Position numbers and translations under genes: made by a program. DNA of 50,532 bases from NCBI GenBank assembly GCA_048939015.1, contig JBHLPW010000041.1, positions 1-50,532 of the forward strand, given 5' to 3'. Under the pieces are notes generated by a model that saw only the letters and a list, made by a program, of their open reading frames with translations, did no database searches and had not been told where the DNA came from. Origin of the DNA: Promethearchaeota archaeon (lineage in GTDB: Archaea > Asgardarchaeota > Lokiarchaeia > Sigyniarchaeales > SOKP01). Below, piece by piece: positions 19,573 to 42,345 of the stretch. Positions within the stretch are counted from its first letter, which is position 1. Each line of letters starts with the position of its first letter.

Positions 19573-22266
19573 ATGACAGAAATGAGAAAATCCAAAATAT
19601 ATATACTATTTCTCTTGATTGTTCTACTTATTTCAATCTCGCCATTTTTTGAATTCCAATCATCTTATACTTATAGTATTGCAAAAAATGTTCCTAAACC
19701 TTCAAATTTTTGGGTAATGGGACCACTTCATATAGATGATACTGGAGGTGGAGACTATACATGGGCAGAAGCAGCGTTGGAAGATTGGTGTAGCGGAGAT
19801 GGTTCATTTAATAATCCATACATTTTAGAAAATATTACCATCGATGCGAATTGGCTGGATAATTGTATTCTAATCGAAGATTCAAACAATAAATATTTCA
19901 CTATTAGAAATTGTACAGTTATAAATTCGGGAACATTATTCCAGGCACATGCCGGAATTGAATTACTTAGATCGTCTAATGGGACAATTGAGGATAATAT
20001 ATGTTTGAACAACTTAAAATGGGGGATATATCTTCAAACGGATTGTTATAATAATACAGTTCAGAATAATTATATTCAAAACAGTTCGGCAGCGGGTATT
20101 AGAGTTTTCGAGTCAACTCATAATATTATTTTTAATAATACAATTTTAGAAGGTGGTCCAAATGACTCAGACGGCATAACAGTGGATTTCAACAGTGAAT
20201 TTAACACGATTATGAATAATACAATAACTAGTCATGATTATGGTATTTATATTGCTGTTTCTTCGCATAACAATACAGTTATTAGCAATAAAATTAACGG
20301 TGTAAATGAGACGGGGATTTATTGTTATACTGATAATTGTATTATAAAGATGAATAAAGTGAACGGCTCATTACGAGGAATTTGGTTGAGTGGGGACGAT
20401 TCAATTATCTATGGAAACAGATTAACTAATAATAATGAGAATGGAAGGGATAACGGAAATAATAATGTATGGTATAATGGAACATTAGGGAACTATTGGG
20501 ACGATTATACTGGATTTGATTGGGATGAAGATGGAATTGGAAATACTCCTTATGATATTCCTGGATCTAGCAATTCAAGAGATTATTACCCTATTTGGGA
20601 TATTGGACTTGATCCGATATATATTATCGGAGATGCAACTGGAGTTGGCGCACATAATTGGACATGGGCTAGTAATCAACCGTGGTGTACAGGTTCTGGA
20701 ACTGTTAATGATCCTTACACGATAAAAGAATTAGTAATTAATGATGGAGGTACAGGAGGTTGTATCTGGATTAAAAATTCCAATGTATTTTTCCAAATTT
20801 TGAATTGTACTTTACGGAATGGAGGAAATTCTGGTTATGAAATTCTACTGAATAACACTAATAATGGGATTATCAGGAATAATACTTGTCAACAGGGATA
20901 TTGTGGTATTTTTTTAACCTCTAATTCTGATCATAATAATATTTCTGAAAATATCGTTATAAACGGATATCGTCGAGGAATTTGTGTCTCTAGCTATTCG
21001 GATTATAATAATATAGTAGACAATATTATAATTGAAAGTTATGTGGGCATTCTAGTAACTGCTTCTTGTCATGATAATGTAATTGAAGAAAATTATGCTG
21101 ATGGAAATAATATCGCGGGAATTTATCTAAGTAGTAATTGTACCGAAAATCTCATCCTAAAAAATGATATTATAAATTCAACGAGTTGCGATAATGGAAT
21201 AGTTATTGTTTATAATTGTGATAATAACAAGTTCTATCAAAATTACATTGCAAATAACTGGCGTGGAATTTACATGTATGATGGATGTGATGATAACATA
21301 TTCTGGGATAATGAATTCATTGATTTAAGAGATTATGGACTCTGGATAAGAAATCTAACATCACCTAGTTCTGGGAATATCATCTTTGGTAATACTTTCT
21401 CCACTCGGGGTCAAAATGGTAACGACGGATGTTTTGGAAACTATTGGTATAATGGGACAACAGGAAATTATTGGGCAGATTATAATGGTGTCGATGCTAA
21501 TGATGATAGAAGAGGCGATATTCCATATAATATAACAGGAGATGGAAATCGTCAGGACCTCTATCCAATTTGGGATGATGGTGATGATGTTAACCCAACG
21601 CTTTCAGTTATTTCACCATCGGCAGGATCTATTTTCGGAGCTAACCCTCCTACATGCGATCTAGATATCGTTGACACATACCTAAATACAACTTGGTATA
21701 CTTTAAATAATTCTTTTACAACATTTTTCCCAGGTAGTAATGGAGTGAATGTAGTTCCTATTGATGAAGTAACATGGAATTCTTTTTCTGATGGCTCAAT
21801 ATTGATGACATTTTACGTGAATGATTCTGCTGGGCATCCTGCCAGCATTTCATTTGTAATCATAAAAGACATTACAAATCCCTCAATCATTGTGAATTCA
21901 CCTCTTGGAGGTATGACCTTTGGTGCTGATGCTCCTGAATTTAATGTAACAATATACGATCTACATTTACAAGATGCATGGTATACTATCGGGTCTTCTT
22001 CAACAATATACTCTTTTACGCCTATTAATGGTATAAACATATTCCCAATTGATGAAAGTAGCTGGGATGCTCTCGCTGAAGGTGATATCACAATCAATAT
22101 TTTTGTCAATGATTCTGCGGGTAACACACACAGTATTCAGGTAATTGTTAATAGGGATTTACCTTCTGGTGGAGGAAACATTCCCTTTGGAAACTACCAT
22201 CTTATATTTCTTGGATTAGGAATTGTCTCATTATTAATAATCGAGATTAAAAAAAAGAACAAATAA
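19573..22266 (+). CDS. Cell-surface right-handed parallel beta-helix (NosD/CASH-like) protein with Ig-like repeats and C-terminal anchor
   Basis: Signal peptide; two beta-helix units each capped by TW...WC.G.G...PY and GNYWxDY..D..D..G..PY; two NDSAG Ig-like repeats; IPFG-TM-KKK tail. Confidence 0.85.
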   Translation: MTEMRKSKIYILFLLIVLLISISPFFEFQSSYTYSIAKNVPKPSNFWVMGPLHIDDTGGGDYTWAEAALEDWCSGDGSFNNPYILENITIDANWLDNCILIEDSNNKYFTIRNCTVINSGTLFQAHAGIELLRSSNGTIEDNICLNNLKWGIYLQTDCYNNTVQNNYIQNSSAAGIRVFESTHNIIFNNTILEGGPNDSDGITVDFNSEFNTIMNNTITSHDYGIYIAVSSHNNTVISNKINGVNETGIYCYTDNCIIKMNKVNGSLRGIWLSGDDSIIYGNRLTNNNENGRDNGNNNVWYNGTLGNYWDDYTGFDWDEDGIGNTPYDIPGSSNSRDYYPIWDIGLDPIYIIGDATGVGAHNWTWASNQPWCTGSGTVNDPYTIKELVINDGGTGGCIWIKNSNVFFQILNCTLRNGGNSGYEILLNNTNNGIIRNNTCQQGYCGIFLTSNSDHNNISENIVINGYRRGICVSSYSDYNNIVDNIIIESYVGILVTASCHDNVIEENYADGNNIAGIYLSSNCTENLILKNDIINSTSCDNGIVIVYNCDNNKFYQNYIANNWRGIYMYDGCDDNIFWDNEFIDLRDYGLWIRNLTSPSSGNIIFGNTFSTRGQNGNDGCFGNYWYNGTTGNYWADYNGVDANDDRRGDIPYNITGDGNRQDLYPIWDDGDDVNPTLSVISPSAGSIFGANPPTCDLDIVDTYLNTTWYTLNNSFTTFFPGSNGVNVVPIDEVTWNSFSDGSILMTFYVNDSAGHPASISFVIIKDITNPSIIVNSPLGGMTFGADAPEFNVTIYDLHLQDAWYTIGSSSTIYSFTPINGINIFPIDESSWDALAEGDITINIFVNDSAGNTHSIQVIVNRDLPSGGGNIPFGNYHLIFLGLGIVSLLIIEIKKKNK

Positions 22267-33907: not shown

Positions 33908-36148
33908 ATGTCTTTTGATAAGAAGCATTTACTTAAATTCACTTTCCTATGTTTCTTAATTGTTTTAACCAATTTTAATCTAGTGTTAAATCATTATTTT
34001 AATAAATGTCATAATCGAAGTGTGGAAAACCAAGATAAAATTAATGTGTTTATTTCAGATTTTTTTAGAATTAATCCAATTAGAATCAATGAATTAGGAG
34101 TGTATACTTGGGCAGATGCGGTAAGTGAATCTTGGTGTACTGGTTTAGGAACTAAGAGTGACCCGTATATTATTAAAAATTTGGTAATTGATGGTGATAA
34201 CCAAGATAGCTGCATTAGTATAATGAATTCTAATGTTTTTTTTAGGATTGAAAACTGTACTCTTTTTAATTCTGCTAAAGGGGTTAATGCAGGGATCTTT
34301 TTAACTAATGTAAATAATGGAGAGTTGAAAAACAATAACTGTTCTTTTAATAATGGGGAAGGAATTATTCTTTTAACAAGTAACAAAATTAGTGTTTCAC
34401 GAAACATCATCAATTCCAATAAGGGTCATGGTATGTCTTTAACCATGAGCCATAGTAATACTATATTCAGAAATAATGTAAGTAATAATTATTTTGGTAT
34501 TTGGATTGAATTGAGTAATAATAACTCTGTTTTTGATGATAATTTTAATGGCAATAGTAAATCTGGCATAATATTAACAGATTGTATTAATAACAATATT
34601 TCAGGGAATGGTGTTCACAATAATATTCAACAAGGGCTTTATATTATTAATTCTAATAAAAATTTAATAATTGGTAATAACATAGCTAATAATCTTAATG
34701 ATGGAATATATTTAGAGAAAAGTAATAACCAATCAATATTTAAAAATACATTAGATAATTGTACATATGGGATCTCGTTAATGAATAGTTATAATAATAG
34801 TCTTGGGGAGAACTTTATTTACAGATGCGGATTAAGGATCTCTGAATCCTCAATTGAAAAAATGTCTTCTAATAATATTGGAATTACAAATTTAGTTAAT
34901 GAGAAAAAAATATACTTTTATAAAAATGAAAACAACCTACGTACCAAGAATTTTTCAAATGCAGGACAGATTTTATTGGTCAATTGTAATAATACATTGA
35001 TTTCAAATACCAATACTTCTCAGGTTTCAATAGGAATTTCATTATACTATTGTAATAACAATACGATTTTAGATTCTGTTGTTTCAAATAACATTGAATT
35101 TGGAATTTATTTATTCCATAGTAACCAGATTGCAATTTTGGCAAATAATTTAAGCAGCAATAAAATAGGAATCTGTTTATTGAAGTGTAAAAATATTTCA
35201 CTTTATTCAAATTCAATGAGATATTGCGGAATCAAATTACTTGAATCTTCGATCGAAGAAATGACTTCTCATAATATTGATAATACTAACCTAATTAACC
35301 AAAAACCTGTATATTATTTTAGTAGTATATCTAATTTGCAACCAAATAACTTTTTGAACGCAGGTCAAATAATTTTAATCAATTGTTCTAATTCATGGGT
35401 ATCAAATGTTAATATTTCTTTTAGTTCGATTGGAATTTCTTTATTTTATTGTACTAATGGTTTGATATCAAATTGCATCGCTACATATAACAATGATAAT
35501 GGTATTTATGTATCAATTTGCCAGAACATCACAATATCTAGAAATGAAATAATTCATAATGGTAAGTTAGGAATTGGATTGATTAATAGTAGTGATAATA
35601 TAGTTGTAGATAATTTGATAACAAATAATACTCTATACGGACTCTTTTTAACTAATTCAGAATCAACTAATAATTTAATCTATAAAAATAAATTTATTGG
35701 GAATCATATGAACGCTAGAGATGATGGAATTGGTAATAGATGGGATAATGATATAATTGGTAACTATTGGGACGACTATCAAGGTATGGACGCGAATGAT
35801 AATGGTATTGGAGATATTCCATATTTTATTGAGGGTACAGCTGAAAGTCAAGATAATTTTCCAATCTGGAATGATGGACCTGACCCTAATATCTTTTTTT
35901 TTATTATAGTAGGAATGATCATTTCAGTTGTAAGTTTATCAACAATTTCAGTGGGTTTCGTAATTCGGAAAAGAATTTTGAAAGCAAGACAAAAGGGTAC
36001 ACGAATTTGTATAGTATGTAGAGGTTTAATCTCAGGTAATATTTATTTATGCCCAAAATGTCAAGCTTTTTATTGTGAAAGATGTGCTTCAGTTCTAAAG
36101 GAGAATGATGATAAGTGTTGGTCATGTGATAGTGAAATAAATTTTTAG
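33908..36148 (+). CDS. Receptor-like protein: beta-helix ectodomain, single TM, cytoplasmic C8 RING-like zinc finger
   Basis: Signal/TM; TW..WCTGLGT..DPYII cap; Asn-rich coils; GNYWDDY cap; TM; C-x2-C-x10-C-x2-C-x4-C-x2-C-x10-C-x2-C. Confidence 0.82.
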   Translation: MSFDKKHLLKFTFLCFLIVLTNFNLVLNHYFNKCHNRSVENQDKINVFISDFFRINPIRINELGVYTWADAVSESWCTGLGTKSDPYIIKNLVIDGDNQDSCISIMNSNVFFRIENCTLFNSAKGVNAGIFLTNVNNGELKNNNCSFNNGEGIILLTSNKISVSRNIINSNKGHGMSLTMSHSNTIFRNNVSNNYFGIWIELSNNNSVFDDNFNGNSKSGIILTDCINNNISGNGVHNNIQQGLYIINSNKNLIIGNNIANNLNDGIYLEKSNNQSIFKNTLDNCTYGISLMNSYNNSLGENFIYRCGLRISESSIEKMSSNNIGITNLVNEKKIYFYKNENNLRTKNFSNAGQILLVNCNNTLISNTNTSQVSIGISLYYCNNNTILDSVVSNNIEFGIYLFHSNQIAILANNLSSNKIGICLLKCKNISLYSNSMRYCGIKLLESSIEEMTSHNIDNTNLINQKPVYYFSSISNLQPNNFLNAGQIILINCSNSWVSNVNISFSSIGISLFYCTNGLISNCIATYNNDNGIYVSICQNITISRNEIIHNGKLGIGLINSSDNIVVDNLITNNTLYGLFLTNSESTNNLIYKNKFIGNHMNARDDGIGNRWDNDIIGNYWDDYQGMDANDNGIGDIPYFIEGTAESQDNFPIWNDGPDPNIFFFIIVGMIISVVSLSTISVGFVIRKRILKARQKGTRICIVCRGLISGNIYLCPKCQAFYCERCASVLKENDDKCWSCDSEINF

Positions 36149-36256
36149 GTTTTTATCTACTAAACATTTAATTAAATTCTAAAAAATTATTGAAGATAAG
36201 GTTTAAGTAAGCGATACACATAATTTATTAATAAGAAAACCAATCTTTACAGATAT

Positions 36257-38911
36257 GTGAAAAAATCATTGAGATTACATAATAGACTTGCAATCTACTT
36301 TATGCTCATTATTTCAATTTTCATAATCTTACATATTACTCATCATCTCAATAGCTTCTCGCTAAAAGAAATTACAAAATATGAATTATATGATGATAGA
36401 AAAGATGATGATCTACAACCAATCATATCTCAATATACACCTCTTTTTCCATTTGTAATTGATGATCATGGGGGAGGAGATTATACATGGACACAAGTCG
36501 TTCAAGAAGCATGGTGTAATGGTTCTGGAACTTTCTATGACCCTTATATAATTAAAGAAATACAGATTAATGGCTTTGGTATGGCTAGTTGTATTACAAT
36601 CAAAAATTCTGATGTATATTTCAAGATAGAAAAGAGTATATTTTATAATTCTGGAACAAGTTTGGAAGCAGGAATCTATTTGATTAACACTAATAAAGGA
36701 GAAATATTGAAAAACAATATTACTGATAATAACGGCTATGGAATATATGTAGAGCATAGTAATAATATTACAATATCAGAAAATAAAATTATTAGAACAA
36801 CGCAGGACGGGATTAAATTGTATAATAGTTCACTAAATTCAATTCTAAGAAATAATATAGCTCAGAGTAAAGGAAGTGGAATATATCTTATTCTTACATG
36901 TAGTCATAATCTAATAGATAGAAACATTTTGTATAATAATACATACAGAGGGATTAAAATATTAGGTAGCTGTAATTATAATAATGTAACAAGAAATTCA
37001 GTAGTTAAAAATCAATGGTCTGGTATGGATTTTTGGGGCAGTAATTATAATATAATATCAGAAAACAATGTCACTCAAAACATAGATACTGGATTGATAA
37101 TATCGTATTGCCCTTATAATAATCTTTCCTATAACCTTGTAGAAAATAATAGTCAATGGGGAATTTTTTTATCCCAATGTGATGATCTTTGCATAAAAGG
37201 AAATGAAGTTAGAAATCACAATATGGGGGGTATAGTATTACTTCAATGCAATAATGATACCATTTATGACAATACTATTTTTAATTCAAATATCGGAATC
37301 GGTGTTTTAGATTGTGAAGACATGGTGGTTTCTAGGAATATTGCAGCAAATAATAGTCTTAATGGTATAGAATTAGAAGAATCTAATTATACCATCATTT
37401 CTAAGAATATTGCAATAAATAATAGTGGTATAGGTATATCTCTAAAAAATTCTTATAATAATCATATCTCCGAAAATTCTTTGAATTATAACGGAGACAT
37501 TGGTTTAAAATTAGAAAATTGTAAAAAAAATGAAATTTTAGATAATCGAGTAAATTTCAACTTCATTGGAATAGTTTTAGAGATGTGTACTAACCAATTG
37601 ATTACAGAGAATAATGCATCTCATAATTATGGAGGTTTAGGTCTAATGACCTCTGATAATAATATCATTTCCAATAATAATTTTAATAAGAATGAAGCGG
37701 GGATAAGCTTAGGTAATAACAGCGACTATAACGAAATATATGGAAACCACATGGAGTTCAATTCATATGCTGGTATAACAGTGTCTGAAAGCTTTTATAA
37801 TATTATCTCAGATAATTTTTTAGAATCCAATGATTATGGAATAAGTTCAATTTATAGTGAAAGAAATGAATTCTCAGAAAACTATATTAGAGCTAATAAT
37901 AATTCAGGGGTATTTTTTACATGGAGTCACAATAATAAAGTATTCCATAATTTAATAATGCAAAATGAGATTTGTGGAATAAAAATCCTAATAAGTAATA
38001 ATAATACTGTAAAACTCAATCTTGTGAATAATAATTCCAATAAAGGTTTGATACTAGACTGTAGCGATTTTAATAAAATTTTAGATAATAATATAACCAA
38101 CAACAAAAATGATGGATTGATATTATTTAATTCTCAAAATAGTACAATCTACCACAATAATTTTCATAATAATACTCATATTGGTTTATCATTGGATAAT
38201 TCGTCAGGATCAAACCTTATTTATGATAATTGTTTTATAGGGAATGGGGTAAATGCCTGGGATGATGGCATAAATAACTTATGGAATAATGAAACTGTTG
38301 GTAACTATTGGGATGATTATCTAGGTGTTGATGCAAATAATAATAATATTGGAGATCAGCCTTATTTAATTCCAGGATTAGCGGAAAGCCAAGATAATTT
38401 TCCTCTTGTATTCTGTAGAGCAAGACCCCTCAAGGTTCCCCATCCCTTTAATTATTTACCACTTATTATTACAATAATTTTATCAGTAATTATTGGATCC
38501 TTGGTTACCTATGGTTCTACAATAACAATTAGAAGAAGAATCCTTAAAACCAAATATAAAAAAATCTTTCATGAGGAAGTTGATGAGATAGATGATGATG
38601 TTTTTGAGATTTCAGAATCAGAATTAACAGTTCCTCCAACTCCTACTATTGACGATCAATCACAGAAATTTACAAGTTTACCTCCTACAGAGGAAATTGT
38701 AAGCCCGCAAGAAGTTGAAGAAGTTGAACAAATTGAATCTGAAGTGCAAGTTGAGATAGAAAAGTTCACTTGTATCATACATAAAGGAAAAATAACGGGT
38801 TCCCTATATCTATGTCCTAAATGTAAGACTTATTATTGCATGAATTGTGCTACAGATTTGAAGAAAAAAGGTCAAAAATGTATTAAATGTAATAAGAAAA
38901 TAAAAATATAG
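36257..38911 (+). CDS. Receptor-like protein: beta-helix ectodomain, single TM, acidic linker, RING-like zinc finger
   Basis: Same caps; TM followed by IRRRILK; E/P/T-rich linker; C-x2-H-x10-C-x2-C-x4-C-x2-C-x10-C-x2-C. Confidence 0.82.
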   Translation: MKKSLRLHNRLAIYFMLIISIFIILHITHHLNSFSLKEITKYELYDDRKDDDLQPIISQYTPLFPFVIDDHGGGDYTWTQVVQEAWCNGSGTFYDPYIIKEIQINGFGMASCITIKNSDVYFKIEKSIFYNSGTSLEAGIYLINTNKGEILKNNITDNNGYGIYVEHSNNITISENKIIRTTQDGIKLYNSSLNSILRNNIAQSKGSGIYLILTCSHNLIDRNILYNNTYRGIKILGSCNYNNVTRNSVVKNQWSGMDFWGSNYNIISENNVTQNIDTGLIISYCPYNNLSYNLVENNSQWGIFLSQCDDLCIKGNEVRNHNMGGIVLLQCNNDTIYDNTIFNSNIGIGVLDCEDMVVSRNIAANNSLNGIELEESNYTIISKNIAINNSGIGISLKNSYNNHISENSLNYNGDIGLKLENCKKNEILDNRVNFNFIGIVLEMCTNQLITENNASHNYGGLGLMTSDNNIISNNNFNKNEAGISLGNNSDYNEIYGNHMEFNSYAGITVSESFYNIISDNFLESNDYGISSIYSERNEFSENYIRANNNSGVFFTWSHNNKVFHNLIMQNEICGIKILISNNNTVKLNLVNNNSNKGLILDCSDFNKILDNNITNNKNDGLILFNSQNSTIYHNNFHNNTHIGLSLDNSSGSNLIYDNCFIGNGVNAWDDGINNLWNNETVGNYWDDYLGVDANNNNIGDQPYLIPGLAESQDNFPLVFCRARPLKVPHPFNYLPLIITIILSVIIGSLVTYGSTITIRRRILKTKYKKIFHEEVDEIDDDVFEISESELTVPPTPTIDDQSQKFTSLPPTEEIVSPQEVEEVEQIESEVQVEIEKFTCIIHKGKITGSLYLCPKCKTYYCMNCATDLKKKGQKCIKCNKKIKI

Positions 38912-38991: not shown

Positions 38992-41900
38992 TTGAAAAAG
39001 TTGTTAAAATCCAATAAAATTAGGAAATTCAAATTTTATGTACTAATAGCTTCAACTATATTTATGGTCTTTTCTGGTTATACTTTCATGGATGAAAGGG
39101 TTTATAATAATTTTGCAAGAAAATTAAGAATTTCAGGATTTTGGGTTCTTAATCCGTTTATTATTGATGATAATGGATTTGGAAATTATACTTGGGCAGA
39201 AGCAGCTCTGGAGCCTTGGTGTGATGGCTCTGGTACATGGAATGACCCTTATATTATAGAAAATATTACAATTGATGCAGGATTTTCAGGTGATTGTATC
39301 GGGATTGAAAATTCAAATGTATTTTTTATAATTAGAAATTGCACATTAATTAATGCAGGATATCTTAATACAGGAGGAATTTATTTATATAGGGTAAACA
39401 ATGGAGCTCTAATTGATAATATCATTTCATTTAATTATTTTATTGGAATCGCTTTATTCCAGAGTAACAATATCACGATTCAAGAGAATACTGGTAATTT
39501 TAATGGATATTGGGGGATTTTTCTAAATGATAGTCATAATAACATCCTTATAGGAAATACATTTAACAATAATTATGAGGGTATCTACTTATTATATTGT
39601 AGTAATAATACTATAATAGATAACACAGCAAATTCTAATGAAGATGACGGGATAGATATTGATTATTGTTGTTATACTAATATCTCTAAAAATACTATGA
39701 ATGGTAATGGTGACACTGAATATCACAGAGGATTAGAAATGAATTATTGTAATTTTAGCTATATTTCAGAAAACATTTTAAATTATAATGGAGAAATTGG
39801 GATAATGTTGCATTATTGTGATTATAATAATGTTTTAAATAATACTGTAGAATATAATGGAGTTCATGGGATTCTTGTTCAACATGGTGATAATCATAAT
39901 ATTTCTAATAATATTGCTAAAAATAATGGAGATATCGGTATATTTTCAAGCAATTGTCATTATGTTAATGTTTTAAATAATTCTGCCAAAAATAATGGAC
40001 GTTATGGGATTCTTGTTCAACATGGTGATAATAATATTATTTATAATAATATTGCTGAGAATAACGGAGGTACCGGTTTATACATATATAACTGTAATGA
40101 GAATTCTGTAATAAACAATACAATAAATTTTAATTTAAGTGGAATTTCCCTTGGATCTTGTACAAACAACACATTATCCGTAAATAGGGAAATCTCTAAT
40201 GTTAACTATGGGATTTCTTTCTCCGAGTGTGAAAATATTGAAATCCTTAGCAATATTATAGAAAATAGTGGGTATAATGGGATAACCCTTAGGGATTGTA
40301 ATAGTAGTAACATTTCATTTAATTATTTAAATAAGAGTGGTAATAATGGGATAAATATCTGGGATTCTAATATTAGTAATGTATCTTCAAATTATATACA
40401 TAATAGTGGTATTAATGGGATATACATCCAGGATTCTAATTTTAATAATTTATCTTCAAATTATATAAATAATAGCGGTAATAATGGTATTGAAACTTTT
40501 CGCTGCGACAATAATACAATTATACAAAACATTATGATTGACAATAATTCTACAGGAATTTATGTTTTTTCTGGTAAACACCATGAAATCTCTGAAAATC
40601 TCGTGAATTATAACAAGGAGAATGGAATATACTTACATCGCTGTAATTATATTAATGTAAAAAAAAATATAGCAGATTTTAATGGACATTCCGGGATTAT
40701 TGCCAGTGATGGGGATTTTTTTAATATATCATATAATACTGCTACCTCCAATGAGGATTATGGAACCGATATATATGAAACTCGATATTCTAACGTTTTA
40801 AAAAATAAGTTGGACTTTAATAAATTTGGACTTCGTCTTTGGAGTTGTAATGAGAGTAGTTTTCTTGAAAATTCTCTGTGTGGAAACAATTACTCTGGAC
40901 TAGTTTCATATTTTTGTTATTTTAATAAAATTTCTAGAAACACCGCAAACTACAATGGAGGGGACGGAATTGATTTTAATAGCGGTAATTACAATAATGT
41001 TACAGATAACTCAGTAAGTTATAATGGAGAAACCGGGATTGATATGTATCAGAGTTATTATAACGAAATAGCAGGGAATAATATATTTCGAAATAATGAT
41101 AGTGGTATCTGGTTGTACGGTTGTAATGATAATATAATCTCAGAAAATAAAATTATTAATAATAAAGTTTATGGAGTATGGCTTTCTTATACCAGTTTTG
41201 ATAATCTATTCTATTCTAATTACTTTATATGCAATACCAGACATGTAATTGATTATAATACTAATAACTACTGGAATAATACAAATATAGGTAATTTTTG
41301 GGATAACTATACTGGAGAGGATATAAGCCCTGTAGATGGTATTGGTGACACTCCACATGTTATGAGTAGTGGTATAGATTATCTTCCGATTATTGATTTA
41401 AATATTCCTGTAATTGAAGTTATTTCTCCTTTTTCCACCAGTGTGTTTTCTCATAATGCACCTGATTTTACAGTTTGGGTTAGTGGAAATAATCTTGATT
41501 CAAGATGGTACACTTTTGGCAATGGAAAAACCATTTATACATTTCCAGGACTTACTGGAACTATCAACCAATCAGCATGGGATCAATTAGGAGATGGTTC
41601 TGTGACTATTATGTTTTACATTAATAATACAGCAGGAAATATTACATGTACTAGTAGTATTGAACTTATTAAAGATACTGTCGCTCCTACTGTTACTATA
41701 ATCTCACCATCTCCAAATCAATTCTGTGGAATATCTTCTCCTAGTTTTAATGTCCAAGTTTTGGATAATTATCTTCTTGAAAAAAGTTATTCCATTAACG
41801 GAAGACCTAATATTACCTTTACTTGGGAAACCCAATTTAATCAATCAGAATGGGACAATATAGGTAATGGAACGGTCTCAATAACTTTTTATGGGATAGA

Positions 41901-42345
41901 TAAAGCTGGAAACCTAGACTCGAGTCAAATTGTAGTTCGAAAAGACGCAATTGTCCCACAGATTTATCTCAATTCTCCCTTTCAGAACGAAGAATTCGCA
42001 GGTATAGCTCCACATTTCAATCTTACAATCATTGAGGATCACCTCACATCTACTTGGTACAAAATAGAGGGTATTACAGGTAATTTCTTTTTCACAGGAC
42101 TTAATGGTACTATCGACCAAACAGCATGGGATCTTTTACTTGAAGGTTCTGTTACTTTAACTTTTTATGCTGAAGATGCTGGTGGTAATTTTAATTCATA
42201 TTCAGTAGAAGTTATAAAAAGAATTCCTTCCCAATCACTAACATTTCCTTGGCAAATGGTAATCATTATCATAGCTGTTATAGCTGGTGTGGCTACAGCA
42301 TTAATCTATTACAGCATTCGCAGGAAAGCAAGAGTAGAACCTTAA
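38992..42345 (+). CDS. Large cell-surface beta-helix (NosD-like) protein with three Ig-like repeats and C-terminal TM
   Basis: WCDGSGTWNDPYII cap; long 22-23 aa Asn-rich coils; GNFWDNY cap; three AWD/EWD..G.V...FY...AGN/GGN repeats; TM plus RRK. Confidence 0.85.
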   Translation: MKKLLKSNKIRKFKFYVLIASTIFMVFSGYTFMDERVYNNFARKLRISGFWVLNPFIIDDNGFGNYTWAEAALEPWCDGSGTWNDPYIIENITIDAGFSGDCIGIENSNVFFIIRNCTLINAGYLNTGGIYLYRVNNGALIDNIISFNYFIGIALFQSNNITIQENTGNFNGYWGIFLNDSHNNILIGNTFNNNYEGIYLLYCSNNTIIDNTANSNEDDGIDIDYCCYTNISKNTMNGNGDTEYHRGLEMNYCNFSYISENILNYNGEIGIMLHYCDYNNVLNNTVEYNGVHGILVQHGDNHNISNNIAKNNGDIGIFSSNCHYVNVLNNSAKNNGRYGILVQHGDNNIIYNNIAENNGGTGLYIYNCNENSVINNTINFNLSGISLGSCTNNTLSVNREISNVNYGISFSECENIEILSNIIENSGYNGITLRDCNSSNISFNYLNKSGNNGINIWDSNISNVSSNYIHNSGINGIYIQDSNFNNLSSNYINNSGNNGIETFRCDNNTIIQNIMIDNNSTGIYVFSGKHHEISENLVNYNKENGIYLHRCNYINVKKNIADFNGHSGIIASDGDFFNISYNTATSNEDYGTDIYETRYSNVLKNKLDFNKFGLRLWSCNESSFLENSLCGNNYSGLVSYFCYFNKISRNTANYNGGDGIDFNSGNYNNVTDNSVSYNGETGIDMYQSYYNEIAGNNIFRNNDSGIWLYGCNDNIISENKIINNKVYGVWLSYTSFDNLFYSNYFICNTRHVIDYNTNNYWNNTNIGNFWDNYTGEDISPVDGIGDTPHVMSSGIDYLPIIDLNIPVIEVISPFSTSVFSHNAPDFTVWVSGNNLDSRWYTFGNGKTIYTFPGLTGTINQSAWDQLGDGSVTIMFYINNTAGNITCTSSIELIKDTVAPTVTIISPSPNQFCGISSPSFNVQVLDNYLLEKSYSINGRPNITFTWETQFNQSEWDNIGNGTVSITFYGIDKAGNLDSSQIVVRKDAIVPQIYLNSPFQNEEFAGIAPHFNLTIIEDHLTSTWYKIEGITGNFFFTGLNGTIDQTAWDLLLEGSVTLTFYAEDAGGNFNSYSVEVIKRIPSQSLTFPWQMVIIIIAVIAGVATALIYYSIRRKARVEP
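39866..40032 (+). repeat. Intragenic direct repeat, 138-bp period
   Basis: The identical 29-mer ATGGGATTCTTGTTCAACATGGTGATAAT occurs at 39866 and 40004. Confidence 0.8.
40330..40490 (+). repeat. Intragenic tandem repeat, 69-bp period
   Basis: TATCTTCAAATTATATA occurs at 40382 and 40451; repeated SG(N/I)NGI..DSN..N.SSNYI. Confidence 0.75.

Follow-up and report, generated by a model that had tools for sequence, protein, structure and literature searches.

Tandem beta-helix surface proteins with a shared C-terminal tail

The window studied here, a stretch of 50,532 nucleotides from the 4.86 Mb assembly of a Loki-type Asgard archaeon of the Promethearchaeota (contig JBHLPW010000041.1), harbors three neighbouring, co-directional genes for beta-helix proteins (Table 1). 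The NosD/right-handed beta-helix models (PF05048, PF13229) match all three genes above threshold, with 162-260 bits in four to six stretches against Pfam cut-offs of about 24-26 bits; NosD and Beta_helix reach 162.6 and 132.7 bits in gene 1 and 259.5 and 226.5 bits in gene 2. The beta-helix ectodomain is a widespread surface module in archaea. The ectodomains of genes 1 and 2 are paralogous (33% identity, E 4e-72). Gene 3, which is 30% identical to gene 2, is a third tandem paralogue with the same ectodomain type; a zinc tail is absent from it, and its cytoplasmic stub comprises 12 residues after the TM helix. For gene 2 two start codons are available, GTG at 36257 and ATG at 36302, and translation from the GTG yields a charged n-region and a hydrophobic anchor that are missing from the ATG form.

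Table 1. Features of the tandem surface-protein locus. Positions are those of the window.
Feature	Position	Strand	Description
Gene 1	33908..36148	+	746 aa; N-terminal anchor, NosD/beta-helix ectodomain, one TM helix, predicted RING-like tail
Gene 1 TM helix	35891..35947	+	Residues 662-680; hydropathy peak 2.64
Gene 1 basic stop-transfer	35963-36004	+	IRKRILKARQKGTR, C-terminal to the TM helix; read from the sequence
Gene 1 tail	36008..36145	+	Predicted RING-like domain, C4C4; residues 701-746; stop codon next
Gene 2	36257..38911	+	884 aa from GTG; layout as in gene 1
Gene 2 TM helix	38453..38509	+	Residues 733-751; from hydropathy; followed by IRRRILKTKYKK
Gene 2 tail	38771..38908	+	Predicted RING-like domain, CHC6; residues 839-884; stop codon next
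Gene 3	38992..42345	+	1117 aa; beta-helix, Ig-like repeats, C-terminal TM helix

In genes 1 and 2 the TM helix is followed by the basic motif IRKRILK or IRRRILK, and in gene 2 an acidic, Pro-rich cytoplasmic linker of 87 residues precedes the tail. N-glycosylation sequons (N-x-S/T) are found 20 times in the ectodomain of gene 1 and 23 times in that of gene 2, and a count in the cytoplasmic part and tail of both proteins gave zero. Judged from these sequence features, genes 1 and 2 probably encode N-glycosylated single-pass surface proteins. The original prediction had described both as an ectodomain, a TM helix, the motif IR(K/R)RILK and a terminal domain of 46 residues with one and the same spacing of eight ligands; open reading frames, Pfam matches and hydropathy confirm this layout, and spacing and positions are as read directly from the sequence.

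Ligands and predicted fold of the tail

The last 46 residues of both proteins follow the pattern C-x2-C/H-x10-C-x2-C-x4-C-x2-C-x10-C-x2-C with eight ligands. Ligand 2 is a His in the gene 2 tail, as is usual in the subfamily to which both tails belong (below, the terminal-type subfamily). A six-frame, genome-wide search matched one tail to the other with E 6e-12; their shared spacing thus reflects homology and not chance. Both fit the spacing of the RING superfamily (C-x2-C-x9-39-C-x1-3-H/C-x2-3-C/H-x2-C-x4-48-C-x2-C was used as the rule), except that ligands 4 and 5 are separated by four residues, as in p44, instead of the usual two or three.

A profile built from 17 paralogous domains retrieved the RINGs of MDM2 (E 1.2e-4), p44 (E 1.7e-4) and RNF4 (E 2.1e-4) from the PDB, and its alignment to these three runs ligand by ligand and covers all of them. 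When the family was compared with the genome's own RING-H2 protein, hhalign gave a probability of 47% with all ligands aligned, which indicates a weak relation. Pfam searches with both tails returned no model at the gathering threshold. Their subthreshold matches comprise C1_4, ANCHR-like B-box, zf-C3HC4_3, C1_2, zf-RING_16, zf-RING_2 and DZR; the tails score 13-21 bits on zf-RING_16, zf-RING_2 and zf-C3HC4_3 (cut-off about 27) and 13.8-18.3 bits on C1_4 (PF07975; cut-off 28.9). The best score in the family on zf-RING_2, 25 bits against a cut-off of 27.3, belongs to members with TPR repeats. A feature search of the ESM Atlas reached at most 0.85, a level that shuffled proteins attain one-third of the time, and its nearest named clusters, archaeal zf-RING_2 and Prok-RING_1 proteins, are to be read as leads only.

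AlphaFold2 models of the two tails were obtained independently, from a 17-sequence alignment for gene 1 (pLDDT 88.4) and, for gene 2, from 32 aligned members of its subfamily (pLDDT 86.1). Two short strands and a helix are predicted in both, forming the beta-beta-alpha core of RING domains. With either model, Foldseek searches against the PDB placed RINGs on top (TMq 0.6-0.75, rmsd about 2 A), among them Bmi1/Ring1B, TRAF3, RNF125, RNF4, MDM2 and TFIIH p44; ZZ domains, including that of p62, and PHD fingers ranked below them. VIA-align, which is independent of Foldseek and was run against 48,161 representative chains, returned RING or U-box domains for nearly all of the top 50 matches, with Z-scores of 7.4 for Nse1, 6.6 for RNF146 and 6.2 for p44; Z-scores of this size are common for models of 50 residues, so the weight lies in the uniformity of the lists. 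With high confidence we assign the tail a RING-like cross-brace fold, as predicted by these models, and place it in an Asgard-specific family; it would probably bind zinc in a binuclear manner. The likeness to the C4C4 RING-like C-terminus of p44 and the cross-brace topology put forward in the original prediction are supported by spacing, profile score and the structural lists.

The tail family and the ubiquitin-system neighbourhood of some members

Within this genome the domain occurs in about 20 proteins. Three combine a beta-helix, a TM helix and the tail (genes 1 and 2 and C125:42758-44275), one is a further single-pass protein, and nine are multi-pass membrane proteins. Five carry TPR repeats, and three of these have C-x-C at ligands 3-4; the domain is moreover found on one ATC_hydrolase-like protein and once as a stand-alone protein of 72 aa. 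An acidic segment of the (I/L)TEEEV type precedes most copies; in gene 2 the tail is preceded by the variant ESEVxVEIEK, and gene 1 has none. The tail is a portable, mobile cytoplasmic module, joined to a wide range of unrelated N-terminal parts.

Beyond this genome, the family profile was run against 1.84 billion representative proteins and detected 1,307 clusters at E <= 1e-3, of which 964 reached E <= 1e-10. All relatives recovered from the species-genome collection are Asgard, from Promethearchaeota, Hermod-, Hod- and Thorarchaeota MAGs. Of 102 genomes sampled from the same family, 84 contain the terminal-type subfamily, to which the tails of genes 1 and 2 belong; in neighbouring families it is sporadic. 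It occurs in two forms, as a protein of about 70 aa that is found roughly once per genome and as the terminal part of open frames that range from 500 to more than 3,000 aa. A word-based search with the TM-plus-tail region lacked the sensitivity needed for a census; it retrieved three proteins: the window's own, a beta-helix protein with 81% identity and a DUF285 protein that carries this tail too.

Asgard archaea possess ubiquitin, E1 and E2 enzymes, soluble RING E3s and ESCRT. In agreement with the remark in the original prediction that ubiquitin, E1 and E2 are encoded by Asgard archaea, genes for three UQ_con E2s, two ThiF E1s, several ubiquitin-like proteins and JAB proteases are present in this genome. 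Contig C32 carries, in this order, a multi-TM member of the tail family, a gene for a membrane protein of 91 aa and one for a beta-grasp ubiquitin-like protein (Ubl) of 89 aa that ends in VIGGF; these face genes for an E2 (with HPN motif and Cys), a ThiF-type E1 and a JAMM/JAB protease. The census of related loci was queried with the nine closest sequences and is therefore biased towards the multi-TM branch; at least 10 of 80 Asgard loci, which come from different orders, have orthologues of Ubl, E2, E1 and JAB beside the domain within 4-kb flanks, and as these loci are orthologous they represent one conserved synteny and not independent events. Records from Hermod- and Hodarchaeota are included, and the Ubl gene lies 100-130 bp downstream of the RING-like gene. 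Another operon (contig C5), conserved in about 25 genomes, consists of ubiquitin, E1, E2 and JAB genes and closes with a gene for a multi-pass protein of another kind, whose C-terminus is less clearly RING-like (hhalign 61% against the tail family). On contig C46 two tandem TPR-RING-like genes are located beside a ubiquitin-like gene.

The terminal-type subfamily was compared with the operon-linked multi-TM branch by hhalign (99.6%, E 1.9e-23) and, at the level of sequence profiles, the two clearly belong to one family. The flanks of genes 1 and 2, with DUF6125, pyroglutamyl peptidase and aconitase genes, contain no ubiquitin-system gene. Likewise, no ubiquitin, E1, E2 or JAB gene was found within 1.5 kb of 29 related terminal-type tail loci, and ubiquitin genes are absent from the vicinity of the 72-aa stand-alone member in this genome.

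Possible function of the tail and comparison with known systems

In the srfp E3 of Caldiarchaeum, residues I30 and W58 contact the E2 and matter in tests, and the linchpin R69 is required, as seen with the R69A variant (PMC5654768). The equivalents of I30 and W58 in the tail family, an aliphatic residue two positions after ligand 1 and a Leu four positions after ligand 6, are hydrophobic and conserved, and the operon E2 retains the loop-7 Pro-Ser. At the position after the last ligand, where E3 RINGs carry a basic linchpin, gene 1 has an Asp and gene 2 an Asn; most relatives have D, N or H, and a Lys appears in the 72-aa stand-alone form only.

As one branch of the family sits in a conserved Ubl-E2-E1-JAB cluster, recruitment of a charged E2 would be the most likely role of the tail. 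This E3-like function is the best supported one, and we give it a little less than an even chance, since the evidence for it comes from a paralogous branch and the absence of the linchpin counts against it. Support for it applies to the family and extends to genes 1 and 2 only indirectly; these two may encode membrane-bound ubiquitin ligases. Such a protein would expose a right-handed beta-helix of the NosD/CASH type outside the cell and carry the putative binuclear cross-brace zinc domain at its inside end. The tail could recruit E2~Ub/Ubl to the membrane, whereupon the protein's own lysines or those of membrane proteins nearby would be modified, and the modification might mark these proteins for turnover or ESCRT-type sorting. 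It is conceivable that binding to the ectodomain is coupled to the action of the tail; for the ligand-sensing receptors of the original prediction, the architecture is the support at hand, and nothing beyond it was found to favour them.

The main rival explanation takes the tail as a non-catalytic interaction or oligomerisation module of RING-, B-box- or ZZ-like type that does not recruit an E2 and instead clusters surface proteins or ties them to the cytoskeleton, ESCRT or an adaptor. The RING of p44 binds p34 in TFIIH and is known mainly as a protein-binding module, and the tails share its ligand spacing. The absent basic linchpin, the lack of adjoining ubiquitin genes in the terminal-type subfamily and the p62 ZZ domains among the structural neighbours point in the same direction, as does the fact that C1_4 and ANCHR-like_BBOX are the commonest subthreshold leads in this subfamily (8 and 9 of 32 sequences, respectively). 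On the other hand, the tail family is embedded in the conserved Ubl/E2/E1/JAB cluster, and B-boxes are missing from the top 50 structural hits of both models. The gene 2 tail does open with C-x2-H like a B-box, yet the terminal His-x-His ligands of B-boxes and ZZ domains are replaced by C-x2-C in the tails; a B-box-like reading keeps some probability. Taken together, we regard a non-catalytic module as a serious possibility, though one we would not expect to hold.

Two further explanations concern the kind of finger itself. A C1- or FYVE-like cross-brace finger that binds lipid and positions the cytoplasmic end at a membrane patch is suggested by weak matches to C1_2 and FYVE_2 (E 5e-4 to 0.3). 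These matches are below threshold, though, the basic motif of FYVE domains is not visible in the tails, the structural neighbours are RINGs and not C1 or FYVE domains, and soluble TPR proteins and the stand-alone protein contain the domain as well, all of which makes a lipid-binding finger very unlikely. Even less probable are two sequential zinc ribbons serving as a generic structural or nucleic-acid-binding cap. Four CxxC knuckles and matches to DZR and DZR_2 (E 0.002-0.7; 10-19 bits on DZR, PF12773, cut-off 27.3) would fit such an arrangement, which the original prediction had named as the outcome that would speak against it. However, both confident models contain the RING core and can be aligned with cross-brace domains along 46-51 residues, and the ligand-by-ligand profile alignment leads to RINGs, so that the double ribbon was rejected.

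With an E3-like tail as the preferred reading, it is tempting to speculate that Loki-type Asgard archaea run an expanded, lineage-specific set of membrane-anchored RING-type ligases, in which binding by the beta-helix outside is coupled to ubiquitin-like tagging and ESCRT/proteasome handling of membrane proteins inside; in this full form we consider the proposal unlikely. The tail family offers clonable candidates for the selection of Asgard membrane proteins for ubiquitin-dependent sorting. With active tails, E3s tethered to the membrane would be older than the eukaryotic ones or run parallel to them; with inactive tails, the family would put the RING fold to a new, non-catalytic use.

Among known domains, the C4C4 RING of TFIIH p44/Ssl1 (PDB 1Z60, 5O85; C1_4) has the same all-Cys pattern of eight ligands and the same four-residue spacer, and is 28% identical to the tail in the structural alignment. 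In contrast to p44, the tails remain at 14-18 bits on C1_4 and have no TFIIH context, no vWA domain was detected by Pfam in genes 1 and 2, and the domain ends a surface protein. RINGs of the MDM2/IAP type (zf-C3HC4_3, PF13920) provide the best sequence match of the family in the PDB. They share with many family members a CAxxL helix and an ending of the C-x-V-C-x-x-P-I type, and five of ten tail paralogues have subthreshold matches to PF13920; however, ligands 3-4 of the tails are Cys-Cys and not His-His, and the tails lack the basic linchpin and the long C-terminal dimerisation tail and stay below the Pfam threshold.

The srfp proteins of Caldiarchaeum (PMC5654768) and Helarchaeia (bioRxiv 10.1101/2023.07.25.550441) are likewise archaeal, of RING type and tied by gene order to ubiquitin, E1, E2 and JAB, and both of the tested E2-contact positions correspond to hydrophobic residues in the tail family. 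A soluble Asgard RING E3 is active in the Helarchaeia cascade (bioRxiv 10.1101/2023.07.25.550441). As a soluble RING-H2 protein (C3H2C3) that depends on its Arg linchpin, srfp differs from the tail family, whose members are of the C4C4/CHC6 type and for the most part anchored in the membrane. Our literature search found archaeal RING E3s described as soluble proteins only, and no membrane-anchored Asgard RINGs.

The overall layout of genes 1 and 2 is that of RNF43/ZNRF3, GRAIL/RNF128 and the plant RMR proteins (PMC4021871, PMC12552968), type I membrane proteins with an ectodomain, a TM helix and a cytoplasmic RING. The likeness to RNF43/ZNRF3 drawn in the original prediction thus holds for the architecture and fails for the ectodomains, which are unrelated (a PA domain there, a beta-helix in genes 1 and 2); the RINGs of the eukaryotic proteins are of the RING-H2 type. 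Since the Asgard tail family appears to be lineage-specific, the likeness to eukaryotic ectodomain-TM-RING ligases is best seen as an analogy, and the two membrane RING layouts were probably invented independently. If the proposed set of membrane ligases exists, it would be a prokaryotic counterpart of RNF43/ZNRF3 and GRAIL that arose independently of eukaryotes or before them.

Ubiquitin-type gene clusters elsewhere in the genome

Two ubiquitin-type gene sets were located on other contigs of the 4.86-Mb assembly. The complete and conserved cluster on C32, which was found again at at least 10 Asgard loci, encodes in order a RING-like multi-pass membrane protein, a 91-aa membrane protein, an 89-aa ubiquitin-like protein (Ubl) with the C-terminus VIGGF, a divergent E2, a ThiF E1 and a JAMM/JAB protease, and is followed by two GTPase-like paralogues of ~300 aa each. 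In the second operon, on C5, the gene 3' of Ub-E1-E2-JAB encodes a multi-pass membrane protein of 393 aa, in which a Ser/Thr/Arg-rich linker leads to a C-terminal RING-like C4-H-C2 finger. This gene order is kept in ~25 genomes of the host's family.

Features of the window and of the host's other contigs (C), with the corresponding cut stretches (L)
Feature	Location	Cut stretch	Strand	Remark
Ubl cluster	C32:68204-72903	L051:4204-8903		complete
Second operon, Ub-E1-E2-JAB + membrane protein gene	C5:33117-37427	L052:6118-10427
Ubiquitin-like gene	C46:104714-105046	L050:4715-5047		110 aa
Two tandem TPR genes	C46:105434-108125			RING-like C-terminus
Stand-alone tail-family member	C40:116345-116563	L054:8346-8564		72 aa
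Repeat protein	C40:113530-114800	L054:5531-6807
Internal duplication in gene 1	window 34790-35480			residues about 295-525
Fourth NosD/beta-helix surface gene	window 19573-22266			897 aa
C-terminal finger of 383-aa protein	C46:63529-63666		-

Other carriers of the RING-like domain

The tandem TPR proteins of C46 (446 and 455 aa) both end in the tail-family RING-like domain and score 25 bits with Pfam zf-RING_2. Their gene pair is oriented divergently from a ubiquitin-like gene, the product of which carries an acidic extension at its N-terminus. In the 72-aa protein of C40, the N-terminal part contains a PPPPxLPP motif, and the linchpin position, the residue after the last zinc ligand, is occupied by Lys. 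This stand-alone form occurs at ~1 copy per genome throughout the host's family and may represent the core soluble version of the tail family. In the host genome, no ubiquitin genes adjoin its gene. The same contig also encodes a protein made up of EKAFMIEKRREQDEKRKEIHPDLE-type repeats, each 33 residues long, and its gene is broken by an assembly N run.

Surface proteins of the window

The gene 1 duplication comprises two ~90-residue segments with a common motif (in order R-(Y)-C-G-(L/I)-(R/K), ESSIE(K/E)M and NAGQI(L/I)L(V/I)NC), which is absent from gene 2. The fourth NosD/beta-helix protein is devoid of the zinc tail.

A p44/Ssl1-like candidate

In the 383-aa protein of C46, the N-terminal part appears vWA-like by eye; a zinc finger comes next, and the C-terminal finger is of a C4HC3 RING/PHD-like type. 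The protein would share its domain order with TFIIH p44/Ssl1 if this visual reading of the vWA part holds.
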